In this document: positions 1 through 9,748 of the stretch, piece by piece
Position numbering within the stretch: position 1 is the stretch's first letter
Layout of the letters: every line of letters begins with the position of its first letter
Virus record (IMG/VR): IMGVR_UViG_2850756110_000010
Coordinates: 1-9,748 of that record
Length of the DNA stretch: 9,748 nt
Origin: a virus
Taxonomy: Duplodnaviria; Heunggongvirae; Uroviricota; Caudoviricetes
Reading direction: 5' to 3' (one strand)
Position numbers and translations under genes: made by a program
The notes under the pieces: generated by a model
Seen by the model: only the letters and a program-made list of their open reading frames with translations
Databases searched by the model: none
What the model was told of the DNA's origin: nothing

Positions 1-624
1 CTAGCGTGCGCCTGTGCTTAAGCATATCTTAACTACCAGTGCCAGAATTGGGTCCTGACGTTTGCAATCAGCCAGCAATTCAACAATCTGCTCATGGGTA
101 AGCCATGCCATCTCTTTTTCTGCGATGGTGAATTTTCGCATGTTCTCCAGTGGGTTCGGATACGACCATTCGCCCAGACGGGATAGTTCGCTAAAAACAC
201 TACTTAGATAGCTTTGCTCCAGGTTAATGGTGACCGGGCTTGCTCCTTTCTTCCATTTCTCGCTGAAGTAGATCTCGCCTGTCAGGCGTTTATCTCGATA
301 GTGGGCAAACATTTTAGAGGTGAGATCGGTTGCAAGAGGATTGCCCAGAGCGTCAACCATCAACAGCAATTTGTCATAGACATGCTGCCCAGCTGTCAGA
401 GATTTACCATGTAGTTTGAACCATAGCTCAACCACGTCTTTCAGTGTTCGACGATCCACTGATTCACCCAGCCAGGGCTTTGCTTCGGTTTCTTCCATCG
501 TGTGGCGCTCAAAAGCCAGTGCTTCGCCTTTGGTGGCGAATTGTTTACGCACACGACGCCCACTTCGTCCGGCAGGGTAACATTCGCAAAGCCATTTCCC
601 AGTGGTGAGTTTTCGTACTGCCAT
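1..624 (-). CDS. int: P2/186-family tyrosine integrase, N-terminal ~207 aa only; ORF ends in TAG at nt 1-3 before the catalytic domain (likely truncated or pseudogene)
   Basis: Minus-strand ORF starting at ATG 622-624, preceded by GGAGGG about 10 nt upstream. Translation MAVRKLTTGKWLCECYPAGRSGRRVRKQFATKGEALAFE...MAWLTHEQIVELLADCKRQDPILALVVKICLSTGAR resembles the arm-binding and core-binding parts of 186/P2-type integrases (from memory). The 52 codons upstream of M53 in the six-frame ORF do not look integrase-like. Stop codon is at window nt 1-3. Confidence 0.8.
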   Translation of the reverse strand: MAVRKLTTGKWLCECYPAGRSGRRVRKQFATKGEALAFERHTMEETEAKPWLGESVDRRTLKDVVELWFKLHGKSLTAGQHVYDKLLLMVDALGNPLATDLTSKMFAHYRDKRLTGEIYFSEKWKKGASPVTINLEQSYLSSVFSELSRLGEWSYPNPLENMRKFTIAEKEMAWLTHEQIVELLADCKRQDPILALVVKICLSTGAR

Positions 625-897
625 AAAAAATGCCCTCCAGTAGAGAGTATTTTTACTGTATGTATAACCAGTGTCAATGTATGAAATCCTACGACCATAC
701 ATCTCACTGAAGCCATAATGAAGTTGGCTATTCTTTTTGCTATGTGAGCATGTAACTTTTGCGGTTAACCTGCGGCTCATTTTTATTTTAGACGCAGATA
801 TAAAAGCAAAAGTTATCGTGAGTTTTTAGTACAGATTTTTTTGGATTTACTAATAGTTCCATCATTGCAAACAAATTTTCCATCGGAGGTACAGTGA

Positions 898-902
898 GAG
901 AC
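898..902. repeat. IS2 target-site duplication, left copy (GAGAC)
   Basis: GAGAC immediately left of the IS2 terminus at 903; identical 5-mer at 2234-2238. Confidence 0.85.
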
Positions 903-993
903 TAGACTGGCCCCCTGAATCTCCAGACAACCAGTATCACTTAAATAAGTGATAGTCTTAATACTAGTTTTTAGACTAGTCATTGGAGTACAG

Positions 994-1359
994 ATGATTG
1001 ATGTCTTAGGGCCGGAGAAACGCAGACGGCGTACCACACAGGAAAAGATCGCAATTGTTCAGCAGAGCTTTGAACCGGGGATGACGGTCTCCCTCGTTGC
1101 CCGGCAACATGGTGTAGCAGCCAGGCAGTTATTTCTCTGGCGTAAGCAATACCAGGAAGGAAGTCTTACTGCTGTGGCCGCCGGAGAACAGGTTGTTCCT
1201 GCCTCTGAACTTGCTGCCGCCATGAAGCAGATTAAAGAACTCCAGCGCCTGCTCGGCAAGAAAACGATGGAAAATGAACTCCTCAAAGAAGCCGTTGAAT
1301 ATGGACGGGCAAAAAAGTGGATAGCGCACGCGCCCTTATTGCCCGGGGATGGGGAGTAA
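994..1359 (+). CDS. insC: IS2 transposase OrfA (InsC), 121 aa
   Basis: ATG at 994 with GGAG upstream. Translation [40 protein letters not shown]... is the IS2 InsC HTH protein. Confidence 0.93.
1311..1317 (+). other. IS2 programmed -1 ribosomal frameshift heptamer A-AAA-AAG (produces InsCD fusion)
   Basis: AAAAAAG at 1311-1317 lies in the insC frame within the insC/insD overlap; insD is in the -1 frame. Confidence 0.8.
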
Positions 1360-2222
1360 GCTTAGTCAGCCGTTGTCTCCGGGTGTCGCGTGCGCAGTTG
1401 CACGTCATTCTCAGACGAACCGATGACTGGATGGATGGCCGCCGCAGTCGTCACACTGATGATACGGATGTGCTTCTCCGTATACACCATGTTATCGGAG
1501 AGCTGCCCACGTATGGTTATCGTCGGGTATGGGCGCTGCTTCGCAGACAGGCAGAACTTGATGGTATGCCTGCGATCAATGCCAAACGTGTTTACCGGAT
1601 CATGCGCCAGAATGCGCTGTTGCTTGAGCGAAAACCTGCTGTACCGCCATCGAAACGGGCACATACAGGCAGAGTGGCCGTGAAAGAAAGCAATCAGCGA
1701 TGGTGCTCTGACGGGTTCGAGTTCTGCTGTGATAACGGAGAGAGACTGCGTGTCACGTTCGCGCTGGACTGCTGTGATCGTGAGGCACTGCACTGGGCGG
1801 TGACTACCGGCGGCTTCAACAGTGAAACAGTACAGGACGTCATGCTGGGAGCGGTGGAACGCCGCTTCGGCAACGATCTTCCGTCGTCTCCAGTGGAGTG
1901 GCTGACGGATAATGGTTCATGCTACCGGGCTAATGAAACACGCCAGTTCGCCCGGATGTTGGGACTTGAACCGAAGAACACGGCGGTGCGGAGTCCGGAG
2001 AGTAACGGAATAGCAGAGAGCTTCGTGAAAACGATAAAGCGTGACTACATCAGTATCATGCCCAAACCAGACGGGTTAACGGCAGCAAAGAACCTTGCAG
2101 AGGCGTTCGAGCATTATAACGAATGGCATCCGCATAGTGCGCTGGGTTATCGCTCGCCACGGGAATATCTGCGGCAGCGGGCTTGTAATGGGTTAAGTGA
2201 TAACAGATGTCTGGAAATATAG
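1317..2222 (+). CDS. insD: IS2 transposase OrfB (InsD), DDE catalytic domain, 301 codons in the six-frame track
   Basis: ORF in the -1 frame relative to insC. Translation ...[41 protein letters not shown]...DNGSCYRA...[11 protein letters not shown]... is typical of an IS3-family integrase-like DDE transposase. Confidence 0.93.
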
Positions 2223-2233
2223 GGGCAAATCCA

Positions 2234-2238
2234 GAGAC
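2234..2238. repeat. IS2 target-site duplication, right copy (GAGAC)
   Basis: Identical to 898-902, immediately right of the IS2 right terminus at 2233. Confidence 0.85.
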
Positions 2239-2367
2239 ACCTCCCTTTTTCCCAGAACAAGGATAATTTTTAGCATAGGTAGTTAGTGGGCTTAATAACA
2301 AAGAGCATGATAAAGAGCATGATAAAACCACAAAAAATACTTTACCAAGCATAGTTTCCTCCCGGTA

Positions 2368-2937
2368 TTATCTAACATATTTAACTGTTAAACTTATAAT
2401 TTTACCAATTATTTCAATGTCTTCTATCTTACAGTCGAAGGCTCTGTTTCCACCCTCGACGAAGATTCTTCCACCGGGTAAACGAGTAATGTCACGGATC
2501 GTTACTTCGCCATCAATACTTATTACCCATTTACCATCACGTATGTCATCAAATTCTTTATCACAAATAAATTCAGAATTGTTATCTGTGATGACAAAAG
2601 GTTTTTTAAACGTAGAGGGTAGAAATCCCTTATCAAAAATATAAAAACCGTCTTCACGCAAGGCACCATCAGATAATACATATTTAGCAACTTCCATAGT
2701 ATTTGTATTACCTGAAGTTTGCTTTGAACCATGTCCGGTTGTGAGCCAATTAAGCGAGGTGCCCGTTTCAAGGGCGCACTGGATTACCCATTCTGCTGGG
2801 AATGAGTCACGCATGTAGCGTGTGGCGAGTGTACTTTTAGAGATTCCTAAATGATCGCACAACGCCTGTCGAGTCTTGAATCCATAAGCTTCTACCATGC
2901 GCTCTATGGCGCCTCGTCCGCCTTTCTCCAAATTCAT
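2368..2937 (-). CDS. cI: Phage 186-type CI immunity repressor (N-terminal HTH, C-terminal oligomerisation domain), apparently intact
   Basis: ATG at 2935-2937 (minus) with GGAG 5 nt upstream; the six-frame ORF extends 2 codons further to a GTG at 2943. The N-terminus ...AIERMVEAYGFKTRQALCDHLGISKSTLATRYMRDSFPAEWVIQCALETGTSLNWLTTG... resembles the 186 CI HTH domain (from memory). Length about 189 aa, similar to 186 CI. Divergent from the apl/cII genes. Confidence 0.8.
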   Translation of the reverse strand: MNLEKGGRGAIERMVEAYGFKTRQALCDHLGISKSTLATRYMRDSFPAEWVIQCALETGTSLNWLTTGHGSKQTSGNTNTMEVAKYVLSDGALREDGFYIFDKGFLPSTFKKPFVITDNNSEFICDKEFDDIRDGKWVISIDGEVTIRDITRLPGGRIFVEGGNRAFDCKIEDIEIIGKIISLTVKYVR

Positions 2938-3062
2938 GGTCACTCCAAGTGAACTTTTATCTTGGCGATTTCACTGTGCGATCGTATGCTTATGGTGTTC
3001 ACAAAATACAAACGATCCGTATTCGTCCTGATTAATCATCATTAAACGAGGAATGTTGCATC
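2938..3062. promoter_or_regulatory. cI/apl intergenic switch region (putative pR/pL operators)
   Basis: 125-bp AT-rich spacer between divergent cI and apl-like genes. Short inverted repeats: AGTGAAC (2948-2954) with TTCACT (2970-2975) and GTTCAC (2997-3002). No promoter elements were mapped. Confidence 0.4.
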
Positions 3063-3284
3063 ATGAGACCTAACATTTCAATCACTCTTACCACGCCTCA
3101 TGTGACTATTGAACGCTATAGCGAGCTGACAGGGCTATCCATCGATACCATCAATGACATGTTGGCTGATGGACGCCTTATCCGTCACCGTCTGCGCAAA
3201 GATAAAAAACGCGAAAAAGTGATGATCAACATAGCAGCAATGACCGTTGATGCGCTTTCAGAATGCAATCTAAACCTTAATTAG
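3063..3284 (+). CDS. apl: Apl/Cox-like small HTH protein (excisionase and lytic-promoter regulator), 73 aa
   Basis: ATG at 3063 with GAGGAA upstream. First rightward gene opposite cI and immediately upstream of cII, the position of apl in 186. Small basic protein (...[36 protein letters not shown]...). Confidence 0.6.
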
Positions 3285-3316
3285 TTCGATTCTGAAATAC
3301 ATCAGAGGCATTGACC

Positions 3317-3496
3317 ATGTTTGATTACCAAGTTTCCAAACATCCATATTTTGATGAAGCCTGTCGTGCATTTGCACTGCGCCACAATCTGGTGCAACTG
3401 GCAGAACGTGCAGGCATGAATGTGCAGATTCTGCGGAACAAGCTGAACCCAGCTCAGCCTCATTTATTAACCGCACCAGAAATCTGGCTGCTTTGA
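3317..3496 (+). pseudogene. cII: cII (186-type lysogeny establishment activator) truncated after about 59 codons by IS911
   Basis: ATG at 3317 with AGAGG upstream. [59 protein letters not shown] resembles the 186 CII N-terminus (full length about 169 aa, from memory). The stop codon TGA at 3494-3496 is the first three bases of the IS911 left end. Confidence 0.75.
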
Positions 3497-3565
3497 AGTG
3501 GCACACTGAATTTGGCCACCTGAACAGAGGTGATATGCTCACCTCAGAACAACACAGGTGCTCCA

Positions 3566-4734
<1,169 letters not shown>

Positions 4735-4743
4735 CCACTTCAC

Positions 4744-5382
4744 GCCAGAGTTTTATTTGAGATCGCAAACAGGGAGGTGGCTTATTACAACATAAGGCAG
4801 GAGTTTAATTACTCAACTGAAATTACTGATTTCATGAAAGCGGTATATTTCCTGTATCTCAATCGTCACGGTTACCGTGGTTTATGTCGCTATAACAAGA
4901 GCGGGCATTTCAACATTCCCTACGGCAATTATAAAAATCCGTATTTCCCTGAAAAAGAAATTCGCGCATTTGCAGAAAAAGCCCAGCGAGCAACGTTTAT
5001 CTGCGCCAGCTTTGATGAAACGCTGGCGATGTTGAAGGCGGGGGATGTGGTGTATTGCGATCCACCGTATGACGGTACGTTTTCCGGCTATCACACTGAT
5101 GGTTTCACTGAAGATGACCAGTATCACCTAGCATCCGTTCTTGAACATCGGTCATCAGAAGGACATCCGGTCATTGTTTCTAACAGTGACACATCCCTGA
5201 TCCGTTCGCTGTATTGCAATTTTACTCACCACTATATCAAGGTAAAACGCAGCATCGGTGTGGCAGCTGGCGAGGGTAAATCAGCAACAGAAATCATTGC
5301 TGTTTCCGGGCCGCGCTGCTGGGTGGGATTTGATTATTCGCGTGGCGTGGATAGTTCTGCCGTGTACGGAGTACGTGCATGA
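4744..5382 (+). pseudogene. dam: Dam-family N6-adenine DNA methyltransferase, 5'-truncated by IS911 (AdoMet-binding motif I missing, DPPY motif present)
   Basis: Open frame runs from the IS911 right end to TGA at 5380-5382. ...[48 protein letters not shown]...[10 protein letters not shown]...VIVSNSDT... resembles E. coli Dam from about residue 75 onward (from memory). No N-terminal FxGxG region and no native start codon. Confidence 0.85.
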
Positions 5383-5487
5383 GCCATGCCGATATGAACA
5401 ACTGCTGCGGCTTTAACGAGGCTGCCGCAGCGTTCTCATGGAACAGCCCGAAAAAGGCCATTAACCCTTATCTGGACCCGGCGGAAG

Positions 5488-6855
5488 TTGCGCCGCGAGG
5501 CACTGAGTGATCAGGTCTGGGAGCGTTATTTTTTTTATGAATCACGTGATCCTGTCCAGCACGAAATGGAGCAGGATAAGCTCATTAGCCGGGCAAAGCT
5601 GGCGCATGAGCAGCAGCGTTTTAATCCGGATATGGTCATTCTGGCGGACGTCAACGCCCAGCCTTCCCATATCAGCAAGCCGCTGATGCAACGTATTGAA
5701 TACTTCAGCAGCCTGGGCAGGCCAAAGGCTTATTCCCGCTATTTACGTGAGACGATTAAGCCATGTCTGGAACGACTGGAGCATGTACGCGACAGCCAGC
5801 TATCTGCATCTTTTCGTTTTATGGCAAGCCATGTAGGGCTGGACGGCCTGCTGATTCTGCCTGAAATGAGTCAGGATCAGGTGAAACGCCTGTCTACCCT
5901 TGTCGCTGCGCATATGAGCATGTGCCTTGATGCAGCTTGTGGTGATTTGTATGCCACCGATGACGTTAAGCCAGAAGAAATCCGCAAGACATGGGAAAAG
6001 GTGGCAGCGGAAACCCTGCGTCTGGATGTCATCCCGCCTGCGTTTGAGCAACTCCGTCGGAAAAGAAACCGCCGTAAACCCGTGCCCTATGAACTCATTC
6101 CGGGTTCGCTGGCGCGTATGTTGTGCGCCGACTGGTGGTACCGGAAATTATGGAAAATGCGTTGCGAATGGCGGGAAGAGCAGTTGCGTGCTGTCTGCCT
6201 GGTCAGCAAAAAAGCATCTCCCTATGTCAGCTATGAAGCCGTGATGCATAAACGTGAGCAGCGCCGCAAGTCATTGGAGTTTTTCCGTTCTCATGAACTG
6301 GTGAACGAAGAGGGCGACACGCTGGATATGGAAGACGTGGTAAACGCCAGCAGCAGCAACCCGGCGCACCGCCGCAATGAGATGATGGCCTGTGTTAAAG
6401 GTCTGGAGCTTATCGCGGAAATGCGCGGTGACTGCGCCGTTTTCTACACCATTACCTGTCCGTCACGTTTCCATTCCACGCTCAATAACGGCAGACCAAA
6501 CCCAACCTGGACAAATGCGACGGTAAGACAAAGCAGCGATTATCTGGTCGGCATGTTTGCTGCATTTCGTAAGGCGATGCACAAAGCCGGGTTGCGCTGG
6601 TATGGCGTGCGGGTGGCTGAGCCGCATCATGACGGTACAGTTCACTGGCACCTGTTGTGTTTTATGCGCAAAAAAGACCGCCGCGCCATTACTGCATTGT
6701 TGCGTAAGTTTGCCATCCGTGAAGACCGCGAGGAACTGGGTAATAACACTGGTCCACGCTTTAAATATGAGCTGATAAACCCGCGCAAAGGAACGCCGAC
6801 AAGCTACATCGCGAAATACATCAGTAAGAACATTGACGGTAAGCGTACAGCCTGA
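5488..6855 (+). pseudogene. P2/186 gpA-like rolling-circle replication initiator, C-terminally truncated by the IS66-family element; N-terminal start uncertain (possible frameshift)
   Basis: Translation contains ...[15 protein letters not shown]... (HUH-type metal motif) and ...[12 protein letters not shown]... (catalytic tyrosine region) typical of P2 gpA. The last 4 codons and the stop are IS terminus sequence beginning GTAAGCG at 6839. Only a TTG start at 5488; an ATG ORF at 5394-5507 lies in a neighbouring frame. Confidence 0.75.
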
Positions 6856-6930
6856 ACCGTCTGGTCAGAATCTGACGAATTAGACAAAGTGGTGTCCACC
6901 AAATAAGTAGTGGGAACCAAAGTGTCAGAT

Positions 6931-7311
6931 ATGCAGAAAAATGTGAATCCCGGCAGGCGAAAAGGCTGCCCTAATTATCCTCCCGAATTTAAACAGCAGC
7001 TCGTTGCTGCCTCCTGTGAACCCGGGATATCCATCTCAAAACTTGCTCTTGAAAATGGCATTAACGCCAATCTGTTGTTCAAATGGCGACAACAATGGCG
7101 CGAGGGAAAGCTGCTATTACCTTCTTCAGAGAGCCCCCAGCTACTTCCTGTGACTCTCGATGCAGCTGCCGAACAGCCAGAATCGCTCGCAGAGGATCCG
7201 GAAACCCTCAGTATCAGCTGTGAGGTAACGTTCCGGCACGGGACGCTCCGCTTCAATGGCAATGTCAGCGAAAAGCTCCTGACTCTGCTGATACAGGAAC
7301 TGAAGCGATGA
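6931..7311 (+). CDS. IS66-family accessory protein Orf1 (TnpA-like)
   Basis: ATG at 6931; the six-frame ORF extends to a GTG at 6910. ...PEFKQQLVAASCEPGISISKLALENGINANLLFKWRQQW... is an HTH protein typical of IS66 orf1. Confidence 0.8.
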   Translation: MQKNVNPGRRKGCPNYPPEFKQQLVAASCEPGISISKLALENGINANLLFKWRQQWREGKLLLPSSESPQLLPVTLDAAAEQPESLAEDPETLSISCEVTFRHGTLRFNGNVSEKLLTLLIQELKR

Positions 7312-7655
7312 TCCCGTTACCTTCCGGGACCAAAATTTGGCTGGTTGCCGGTATCACCGATATGAGAAATGGCTTCAACGGCCTGGCGGCAAAGGTGCAG
7401 ACGACGCTGAAAGACGATCCGATGTCAGGTCACGTTTTTATCTTCCGTGGGCGTAATGGCAGTCAGGTAAAGCTCCTCTGGTCTACCGGCGATGGACTGT
7501 GTCTGCTGACCAAACGGCTGGAGCGCGGCCGCTTCGCCTGGCCGTCAGCCCGGGATGGCAAAGTGTTCCTCACACCGGCACAGCTGGCGATGCTCCTTGA
7601 AGGTATCGACTGGCGGCAGCCTAAAAGACTGCTTACGTCCCTGACTATGTTGTAA
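7308..7655 (+). CDS. IS66-family Orf2 (the IS66 accessory TnpB, not the IS200/IS605 TnpB)
   Basis: ATG overlaps the orf1 stop (ATGA). MIPLPSGTKIWLVAGITDMRNGFNGLAAKVQ...HVFIFRGRNGSQVKLLWSTGDGLCLLTKRLERGRFAWP is a hallmark IS66 Orf2 sequence. Confidence 0.88.
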   Translation: MIPLPSGTKIWLVAGITDMRNGFNGLAAKVQTTLKDDPMSGHVFIFRGRNGSQVKLLWSTGDGLCLLTKRLERGRFAWPSARDGKVFLTPAQLAMLLEGIDWRQPKRLLTSLTML

Positions 7656-7703
7656 GCCTCTTTATCCTGGTCGACGCTGAATGAGCCTGGTAATATACCC
7701 GGT

Positions 7704-9242
7704 ATGAGCAGCTCACTTCCTGACGATATCAATGCACTGAAACGTCTCCTTGCCGAACAGGAGGCGCTGAACCGTGCCCTGCTGGAAAAGCTGAACGAGC
7801 GTGAACGCGAAATAGACCATCTGCAGGCACAGCTGGATAAGCTGCGCCGGATGAACTTCGGCAGCCGCTCCGAAAAAGTCTCCCGTCGTATCGCACAGAT
7901 GGAAGCTGACCTGAAGGCACTTCAGAAAGAAAGTGATACCCTTACCGGTCGGGTTGACGACCCGGCCGTGCAGCGCCCGCTGCGTCAAACCCGCACCCGC
8001 AAACCGTTCCCCGAATCACTCCCCCGCGATGAAAAACGGCTGCTGCCGGCAGCGTCATGCTGCCCGGAATGTGGAGGCTCACTGAGCTATCCGGGTGAGG
8101 ATGCCGCCGAACAGCTGGAGTTGATGCGCAGCGTCTTCCGGGTTATCCGGACTGTACGTGAAAAGCATGCCTGTACTCAGTGCGATGCCATCGTGCAGGC
8201 CCCCGCGCCTTCACGGCCCATCGAGCGGGGTATCGCAGGACCGGGGCTGCTGGCCCGCGTGCTGATCTCAAAGTATGCAGAGCACACCCCGCTGTACCGC
8301 CAGTCTGAAATGTACGGCCGCCAGGGCGTGGAGCTGAGTCGTTCACTGCTGTCGGGCTGGGTGGATGCATGCTGCCGGCTACTGTCACCGCTGGAAGAAG
8401 CGCTTCAGGACTATGTGCTGACTGACGGTAAGCTCCATGCTGATGACACGCCTGTCCCGGTGCTGTTGCCAGGCAATAAGAAAACGAAGACCGGGCGGTT
8501 ATGGACCTACGTTCGTGACGACCGTAACGCCGGGTCAACGCTGGCGCCGGCGGTGTGGTTCGCTTACAGCCCGGACAGAAAAGGCATCCATCCGCAGACC
8601 CATCTTGCGGGGTTCAGTGGTGTACTGCAGGCGGATGCATACGCCGGGTTCAACGAGCTGTACCGGGATGGCCGGATAACGGAAGCCGCCTGTTGGGCTC
8701 ACGCCCGCCGTAAAATCCACGATGTGCACGTTCGCACCCCGTCAGCCCTGACGGAGGAAGCGCTGAAACGGATCGGCGAACTGTACGCCATCGAGGCAGA
8801 GATAAGGGGAATGACGGCGGAGCAGCGCCTTGCCGAACGTCAGTTGAAAACGAAACCGCTGCTGAAATCCCTGGAAAGCTGGCTGCGTGAAAAGATGAAA
8901 ACCCTGTCGCGACACTCAGAACTGGCGAAAGCGTTCGCATACGCCCTGAACCAGTGGCCGGCGCTGACGTACTATGCAGATGATGGCTGGGCTGAGGCGG
9001 ACAATAACATCGCTGAAAATGCGTTGCGGATGGTCAGTCTGGGCCGCAAAAACTACCTGTTCTTCGGTTCGGATCATGGAGGAGAGCGGGGAGCGCTGCT
9101 GTACAGCCTGATCGGGACGTGCAAACTGAACGGAGTGGAGCCAGAAAGCTACCTCCGCTATGTACTTGACGTCATAGCCGACTGGCCGATAAACCGGGTC
9201 GGCGAACTGCTCCCCTGGCGCGTAGCACTGCCGACTGAATAA
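7704..9242 (+). CDS. IS66-family transposase Orf3 (TnpC), 512 aa
   Basis: N-terminal coiled-coil/leucine zipper, zinc-finger-like CCPECGG...CTQCD, and a large DDE-type catalytic region. Ends 37 bp before the right inverted repeat. Confidence 0.88.
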
Positions 9243-9309
9243 CACATCCCCGTCAATACGGTTCTTGCTGCACGCTTACACTTAACTTTATGACATCATA
9301 CTGCTTTTA

Positions 9310-9346
9310 GAAGTGAAAAATTAAAAGGGAGAGACTCCGCTCTCCC
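9310..9346 (-). terminator. Rho-independent terminator for the 9368-9748 minus-strand gene
   Basis: Hairpin GGGAGAG-actccg-CTCTCCC (9327-9346), followed on the minus strand by TTTTAATTTTTCAC, about 20 nt downstream of the stop codon. Confidence 0.65.
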
Positions 9347-9367
9347 ATTATTGGCTATTTTGCAGGG

Positions 9368-9748
9368 TTACTGCGTGGTACCGTCGGTTTTGGTATCGAC
9401 ATCATTATTGATGCCATCACCGGTTTGTACCTTTTTATTGATATCCGGACATCGACCATCTTTGCACATGGTGTTCTTGTGCTCTTCATCTTTGGTCATT
9501 CCGTCATTGTTCATTGAAGAACCATCCGAATGCAGCATTGTGCCGCCAGAACCGGTATTTACCCCGTTATTGTCGACGTTATTTGGCGCGACATTTTCAC
9601 GGGCGTCAGGGGCTACCTGGCCCGCATCAGTTGCGGCGTTTGCCTGGCCGTTATTAGTTTGCGCTCCGCTATCGGCAGCCAGTGCGGCACCGCTGGCAAG
9701 GCTTAGAGTGGCAGTCAGAAATAATGTGGCCAGTTTTGTCATTTTCAT
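9368..9748 (-). CDS. Secreted or periplasmic low-complexity Gly/Asn/Asp-rich protein with Sec signal peptide (126 aa), function unknown; probably host chromosomal
   Basis: ATG at 9746-9748 at the window edge. [24 protein letters not shown]|ADSG is a classic signal peptide with an AxA site. The mature part is rich in N/G/D/T with one Cys pair (CKDGRC). Confidence 0.7.

Follow-up and report, generated by a model that had tools for sequence, protein, structure and literature searches.

The window examined here is a 9,748-nucleotide stretch of viral DNA (IMG/VR virus record IMGVR_UViG_2850756110_000010, positions 1 to 9,748), and its subject is a short open reading frame (ORF) that lies in a decayed prophage of the phage 186 type, between the cI repressor gene and the integrase gene (int). 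The ORF is split by the insertion sequence (IS) IS2, and an original prediction, made without database searches, had proposed that its two halves once formed a small exported Cys-rich protein encoded in the lysogenic operon. Our analysis places the restored ORF, with hardly any doubt, in the YdcA family of exported four-Cys mini-proteins, finds its reading frame intact in hundreds of prophages, and shows the copy in the window to be dead. The features of the region, in window coordinates, are as follows.

1 to 624, minus strand: integrase gene, 5' part, cut by the window end and lying downstream in the same operon; the start at 624 is set by homology to the annotated gene.
625 to 812, minus strand: non-coding spacer of 188 nt between the ydcA stop and the int start, with no terminator-like site on the coding strand.
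813 to 902, minus strand: 3' part of ydcA, codons 39-67 and the stop, encoding Cys 2-4 and the Lys-rich tail and including an A7 run (joined ORF, alignment).
898 to 902, no strand: left GAGAC copy of the target-site duplication (sequence inspection).
903 to 2233, plus strand: IS2, with tnpA/tnpB (insC/insD) running opposite to cI-ydcA-int transcription (NF006928 and NF006918, above their cut-offs).
2234 to 2238, no strand: right GAGAC copy of the target-site duplication (sequence inspection).
2239 to 2352, minus strand: 5' part of ydcA, codons 1-38, encoding the signal peptide and the first mature Cys (100% outside the 12-nt duplication against positions 6049-6240 of L001, an intact relative encoding WP_000900884.1).
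2301 to 2324, no strand: 12-nt tandem duplication (AAGAGCATGATA twice), which lengthens the hydrophobic core of the signal peptide by LSCS.
2353 to 2367, minus strand: cI-ydcA spacer of 15 nt with the Shine-Dalgarno sequence GGGAGG at 2363-2358 (sequence inspection).
2368 to 2943, minus strand: cI repressor gene (Pfam Phage_CI_repr 2.8e-33, Phage_CI_C 2.7e-29).

The inserted element is 1331 bp long with imperfect terminal inverted repeats, and its two overlapping ORFs are both IS2 transposase genes, TnpA (NF006928, 273.5 bits against a cut-off of 229) and TnpB (NF006918, 727.6 against 597), so that its length, ends and protein profiles all agree with the proposed identity and boundaries. An exact 5-bp copy of GAGAC stands on each side, which fits the simple insertion that had been suggested. 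When IS2 and one GAGAC copy are deleted, the minus-strand segment 2352-2239 joins 902-813 in frame; the joined ORF is 67 codons plus a stop, and the predicted in-frame junction therefore stands with a product of 67 amino acids (aa), the earlier figure of 68 having counted the stop codon. Upstream, the cI stop TAA ends at 2368 and is followed by the spacer TACCGGGAGGAAACT and then by the ydcA ATG at 2352-2350, exactly the strong Shine-Dalgarno arrangement 15 nt past the repressor stop that had been described. On the other side, window positions 3-902 match L001 7050-6151 at 99.7%.

IS2 breaks ydcA after codon 38, within codons 39-40, and parts Cys1 from Cys2-4, as expected from the proposal that the ORF had been inactivated. 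The window gene thus lacks an uninterrupted reading frame; its 5' fragment now runs into IS2 as a 98-aa ORF, and the path from pL to int is crossed by the element, whose genes lie on the opposite strand. What remains in the window is a pseudogene, within a prophage that has itself decayed.

The original prediction recognised no described family in the peptide, and here our results differ. The restored protein scores 103.8 bits against the NCBIfam model NF007463 (PRK10040.1-2; cut-off 93) over residues 6-67 and matches PHROG 6000, a group with no assigned function, at E 9.7e-31. PF27300 ('YdcA') is precomputed on nearly all of 120 listed homologs, and the RefSeq or newer Prokaryotic Genome Annotation Pipeline name of the identical protein, which sits between CI and integrase, is 'YdcA family protein'. 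Against NF007462, which judging by its model length is the K-12 YdcA model, the restored protein reached 61.9 bits with a cut-off of 118. The Pfam release that was searched did not contain PF27300, and for that reason its empty result is no sign of novelty. The family to which the protein belongs (K-12 YdcA/b1419; PF27300; NF007462, NF007463 and NF007464; PHROG 6000) has the same architecture, a Sec signal peptide followed by one four-Cys domain of 33-45 aa; relative to K-12 YdcA, the window protein is a prophage-borne paralogue split by IS2.

An exhaustive profile search retrieved 450 representative clusters at 50% identity (E ≤ 1e-3), whose common motif is PCSGxKGGxxHC-x(2-3)-GKFxCxDGxxSxSKxxC, with four invariant Cys, behind a variable Sec signal peptide. 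The invariant columns of a 72-sequence alignment (P, C, S, G, G, C, C, G, S, S and C) are all present in the restored window protein, and the His of the motif is near-invariant, being found in at least 90% of members. Judged by sequence features, all 72 members possess both an AxA-like site and a hydrophobic core, which bears out the signal-like N-terminus noted earlier. In the restored protein the n-region contains a Lys, a hydrophobic core comes next and the cleavage motif is T-Y-A; one short mature domain makes up the remainder. This mature part is predicted to be 40 aa long with a net charge of +7, close to the medians of 37 aa and +6 for the 72 members; the Lys-rich tail first described as 41 aa is therefore one residue shorter, and its four Cys were correctly counted. 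From these features, export of the product to the periplasm is very probable.

Other similarities proved uninformative. A match to lpg1681, a Cys-rich family, was rejected (E 0.076; 13 bits, where the cut-off is 95), as were weak sequence matches in the protein databank (PDB) to plant Pin-II proteinase inhibitors and lectins (E 0.2-1.8), which are compositional noise of Cys-rich proteins, and the UniRef cluster name 'Conjugal transfer protein', which no genomic context backs. Searching the literature by the name ydcA mostly returns unrelated Bacillus, F-plasmid or gonococcal genes.

On whether the ORF is a gene at all, intact copies are informative. At least 586 of 5426 complete E. coli genomes cover at least 80% of a query spanning the restored junction, and these loci are annotated as phage repressor protein CI, a hypothetical or YdcA family protein, and phage integrase. 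In IMG/VR, 505 contigs encode a relative, and in all 80 of those sampled the 63-aa ORF is intact and lies between cI and int. The Shine-Dalgarno sequence GGGAGG is kept within 15 nt past the cI stop by the three commonest upstream variants (74 of the 80 copies), with GGGAGT or GGGAGA in two rarer variants of two copies each. Selection was tested on nine homologs, two of them from different Escherichia lineages and the others from Enterobacter, Yersinia, Citrobacter, Actinobacillus, phage HP2, Chromobacterium and Moraxella. In the mature region most pairs differ by 17-25 synonymous against 2.5-14 non-synonymous changes, with dN of 0.03-0.3 and a saturated synonymous distance, and dN in the signal-peptide region is 0.4-1.6. 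By this comparison the mature YdcA peptide is under strong purifying selection, the pattern expected of an exported protein with tight constraint on its mature part.

This pattern is incompatible with a chance ORF in non-coding DNA between cI and int. Such a reading could draw on the shortness of the ORF and on its being left unannotated in the genomes of HP2, S2 and several Mcat phages, but the same frame and motif recur across the 450 clusters, synonymous changes far outnumber non-synonymous ones, the Shine-Dalgarno sequence is conserved and the family has curated models. The variants of this idea in which the ORF encodes a lineage-specific lipoprotein or a small toxin fare no better, and taken as a group we consider them extremely improbable. 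The E. coli lineage does carry a lipobox-like VLSC in its signal peptide, but this Cys is not conserved across the family, which makes a lipoprotein unlikely, and we rejected the lipoprotein reading on that ground; for a toxin, there is no immunity or antitoxin partner in the 186-like context. No loss of frame conservation was seen that would speak against the family identity or the reality of the gene, and both are nearly certain.

In phage 186 itself cI abuts int with nothing between them, in an annotated lysogenic operon that is driven by pL/pE and has its predicted terminator beyond int and Orf69. Because of this empty junction, ydcA is to be regarded as an accessory insertion (moron) in the lysogenic operon. 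In 186-like prophages from Enterobacter, Yersinia and a second E. coli lineage, an uninterrupted ydcA follows cI and precedes int, and HP1-like prophages of Pasteurellaceae also have ydcA between cI and int, starting 4 nt past cI. In the intact locus the coding strand from cI to int shows no terminator-like site, and ydcA is probably co-transcribed with cI. The idea of a moron of the lysogenic operon is thus upheld by its absence from phage 186, by the homologs at the same junction and by the lack of such a site. The ydcA-int gap is 188 nt in the window lineage and 2 nt in the Enterobacter prophages. In the window the int frame is open upstream as far as an ATG at 780, and a weak terminator-like hairpin lies at about 757-790 on the strand opposite to ydcA and int.

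The family is also present, unannotated, in deposited phages. Haemophilus phage HP2 (NC_003315) encodes a 60-aa YdcA-family ORF directly past cI (L002 3420-3602, about 2486-2668 of the record, complement), whose ATG overlaps the cI stop as TAATG, an overlap that points to coupled translation. A YdcA ORF is likewise left unannotated in several records of Moraxella Mcat phages and Acinetobacter phages. A tblastn search of the phage collection found no deposited enterobacterial phage with ydcA, the matches being confined to Moraxella, Acinetobacter, Haemophilus and Pseudomonas phages; our evidence on 186-like phages therefore comes from prophages. Beyond lysogeny modules, we found the family among the tail genes of Moraxella phages and of a Chromobacterium myovirus, in the nin region of a Citrobacter lambdoid prophage, on 4-5 kb Acinetobacter and Psychrobacter plasmids, on Rhizobium plasmids, and in the Moraxella bovoculi chromosome with no phage context.

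In a sister E. coli 186-like lineage (L004-L008, 5198-6529) a 443-aa KAP-family NTPase lies between ydcA and int. This NTPase matches the PADLOC candidate defence system PDC-S20 (E 1.3e-171), and its place beside ydcA implies that the cI-int interval accumulates accessory and defence genes. In two papers on P2-like defence hotspots, a cI-int hotspot is described for K139-like phages and a minor integrase-to-primase hotspot for P2 (PMC9122126, PMC13586616), in line with the earlier suggestion that genes in this position often serve lysogenic conversion, exclusion or defence. The cI-int interval studied here is variable in the same manner as the hotspots of Rousset et al. 2022 and the 2026 NAR follow-up, being empty in 186, occupied by ydcA in the window and by ydcA plus PDC-S20 in the sister prophages; YdcA itself, in contrast, has no PADLOC model and is not a recognised defence gene, and the passages searched in the two papers make no mention of ydcA.

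Gene neighbours were also compared across the family. In Moraxellaceae the gene after ydcA invariably encodes a protein of 212-319 aa that is homologous from locus to locus (L003 4126-4764; L024 4186-4884; L111 966-1697; L112 3132-4091), in loci that comprise a Moraxella phage, the M. bovoculi chromosome and small plasmids of Acinetobacter and Psychrobacter. This partner has an N-terminal membrane anchor and no significant Pfam match, and the pair may constitute a two-gene cassette. No gene of this type is present in the 186-like context. A universal partner gene was considered and rejected: the downstream products in HP2, Chromobacterium and Moraxella are exported or anchored, with homology among them only within Moraxellaceae.

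The sole solved relative of YdcA is Dis2 (Lpg0823) of the Legionella Dot/Icm system, chain AN of PDB entries 7MUC and 7MUD. The family profile matches 7MUC_AN in both lobes at E 2.3e-6 (3.2e-5 with a single sequence), Dis2 is the top structural match in Foldseek (probability 0.95), hhalign relates YdcA to Dis2 with 82% probability, and a Dis2-like database protein carries PF27300. Dis2 has been described as two similar lobes with five disulfides of strong cryo-EM density (PMC8486379), and it adjoins the outer membrane, where it touches DotK, DotC and DotD of the outer membrane cap (PMC8486379, PMC12716638). Since each lobe matches the YdcA domain in sequence and fold, Dis2 is likely to be a tandem duplication of that domain, although it has been called Legionella-specific and without structural relatives (PMC8486379, PMC12716638). 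The two share an exported, disulfide-stabilised mini-domain. They differ in that Dis2, with two lobes and five disulfides, is without most of the conserved lysines and belongs as a stoichiometric component to a secretion machine, whereas phage YdcA is a single, very basic domain with four Cys. No genes of a type IV secretion system adjoin ydcA in the window or in the related prophage, plasmid and chromosomal loci.

A second lead comes from domain architecture, which we surveyed in the best 150 of the 450 representative clusters. Most of these proteins are solo YdcA domains and a few are tandem repeats, but the domain is also fused to nucleases of three unrelated kinds: Endonuclease_NS (P0248, P0230), a staphylococcal-type nuclease, SNase (P0177 and P0313, only 41% identical), and a PLD-family nuclease (P0249, with Nuc, 1BYR, as best PDB match at 3.9e-19). 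All five proteins are metagenomic, and in each the YdcA domain stands straight after the signal peptide with its Lys-rich motif kept. This arrangement hints at a role in handling nucleic acid beyond the cytoplasm; the domain could instead be a general-purpose tether or accessory part of such nucleases. In related thermonucleases the equivalent N-terminal slot is occupied by the Excalibur domain (Pfam PF05901). One metagenomic protein of 2134 aa (P0141) matches the YdcA domain in 22 stretches; its apparent matches to PilE_C, DUF2484 and DUF4124 include no individually significant stretch and were set aside as repeat artefacts.

The relation to Dis2 and the nuclease fusions together suggest DNA binding or docking on an envelope machine, and with it a role in the exclusion of incoming DNA. 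In an intact 186-like prophage, ydcA would be transcribed together with the repressor in every lysogen and translated from its own strong Shine-Dalgarno sequence. The product would be exported by Sec and cleaved after TYA, leaving in the periplasm a basic mini-protein of 36-40 aa with a net charge of +7, in which the four Cys would, by analogy with Dis2, form two disulfides. As a presumed small basic binding module, it might bind extracytoplasmic nucleic acid or dock on an outer-membrane-proximal machine as Dis2 does, and the prophage might use it against incoming foreign DNA, in a superinfection exclusion resembling that of Glo. Considered as a whole, this picture of a YdcA-family moron, inserted in the pL/pE operon, inactivated here by IS2 and encoding a binding module against incoming DNA, commands about equal measures of our belief and doubt. 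Among its parts, nucleic-acid binding by YdcA is plausible while falling somewhat short of probable, and DNA-entry exclusion as the selected function we regard as doubtful. A wider generalisation can be framed in which YdcA mini-proteins are widespread extracytoplasmic nucleic-acid binders of temperate phages of many Proteobacteria and of some plasmids, intercepting the DNA of phages, transformation or conjugation, with Dis2 as a duplicated copy domesticated in a translocation machine; we consider it rather improbable.

The comparison with Glo concerns the Vibrio phage K139, in which a protein annotated as periplasmic and acting in phage exclusion is encoded between cI and int (PMC4870250), that is, in the same slot of the lysogenic operon of a P2-related phage and likewise behind a signal peptide. 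Glo, at 137 aa, is not Cys-rich, and its resemblance to YdcA is limited to position and compartment. Homology between the two was rejected, as hhalign gave a probability of 1.3% and aligned only the signal peptides.

Several considerations weigh against a role in excluding DNA. The DNA that a phage injects is normally kept from contact with the periplasm, and to our knowledge no experiment ties a member of the YdcA family to DNA binding or to the exclusion of phages. No family in PADLOC-DB 2.0 matches the YdcA protein at E ≤ 0.01, and many ydcA contexts (tail regions, the nin region, plasmids and a chromosome) lie outside lysogeny modules. The fusions would equally fit a tethering or metal-binding accessory role, given that Excalibur occupies the same thermonuclease slot. 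At the periphery of its secretion machine Dis2 contacts the proteins DotK, DotC and DotD, and no DNA contact has been described (PMC12716638). Finally, the sole phenotype that we found in the literature, the 3-hydroxypropionate sensitivity of a chromosomal E. coli ydcA deletion, together with the reported acid induction of the gene (PMC7642389), points to envelope or stress physiology and away from defence.

These last observations would fit the main rival reading, in which YdcA is an envelope fitness factor that binds the inner face of the outer membrane, or an outer-membrane lipoprotein or peptidoglycan complex, and makes the envelope of the lysogen more robust, for example in tolerating acid or organic acids, as lysogenic conversion and not as defence. 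The position of Dis2 beside the outer membrane and its contacts with DotK, DotC and DotD (PMC8486379, PMC12716638) favour this explanation, as do the mutant phenotype and acid induction, the small plasmids and chromosomal sites that carry the family away from any phage, and the membrane-anchored partner that accompanies ydcA in Moraxellaceae. We nonetheless give it a low probability: the phenotype comes from one study of a paralogue and has no mechanism, Dis2 deletion has only subtle effects (PMC12716638), and fusions to nucleases of three folds would not be predicted unless the domain is a generic tether. It is also conceivable that the four invariant Cys and the His found in at least 90% of members hold Zn or Cu, or act as a thiol buffer, in place of structural disulfides, a notion to which the Excalibur domain in the equivalent slot of related thermonucleases and the non-significant lpg1681 match lend some colour. 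The periplasm is oxidising, however, and DsbA would be expected to form disulfides there; the lpg1681 match falls far under its cut-off, and the homologous lobes of Dis2 are described as pinned by disulfides (PMC8486379). A metal-binding or redox peptide is accordingly very unlikely. The exported binding module directed at incoming DNA is the reading that we prefer, at the strengths given above for its parts.

As to the history of the window copy, the native gene encodes 63 aa, and the window protein, lengthened by the 12-nt duplication that adds LSCS, is 100% identical to the intact RefSeq protein WP_000900884.1 outside these four codons. The duplication is private to this copy: none of the 80 copies from IMG/VR has it, and the best E. 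coli matches, at 521 nt, are 12 nt shorter than the 533-nt query. It may be older or younger than the IS2 insertion. Neither was IS2 found at this ydcA site in any of the complete E. coli genomes of the collection, and the exact IS2/ORF junction had no exact match in the collection of one genome per species. Some alleles of the E. coli gene (P0002, P0003, P0123) are frameshifted at the 3' A7 run, which lies within 813-902 of the window, and have lost the fourth Cys; one such allele occurs on 14 contigs. These frameshifts could reflect slippage-prone sequence or sequencing error.

The rest of the window is equally decayed. Compared with L001, an IS3-family element at 3494-4739, which we take to be IS911-like, stands in place of about 1.8 kb that reach from the 3' part of cII into the 5' part of dam. 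An IS66-family element (TnpA/B/C) from about 6840 to about 9300 cuts the replication gene A short, and the chromosomal gene ybgS (9368-9748) comes directly after this element. The prophage, cut by these two further IS elements, is a non-inducible remnant.

For the window itself the result is mainly corrective: the peptide belongs to a catalogued family that RefSeq already annotates, and as a dead copy of such a family member it is an ordinary finding. The YdcA family, on the other hand, makes a reasonable experimental target, being a mini-protein of about 37 aa that is nearly residue-identical from Escherichia to Haemophilus, Moraxella and Chromobacterium while its synonymous sites are saturated, and that is carried in the lysogeny operon of many P2/186/HP1-type prophages, unannotated in deposited phages such as HP2. 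The new leads are its fusion to three unrelated kinds of secreted nuclease and its kinship with Dis2 as the sole solved relative. Contrary to the description of Dis2 as Legionella-specific, domains of its type appear to be widespread in Proteobacteria and their phages.

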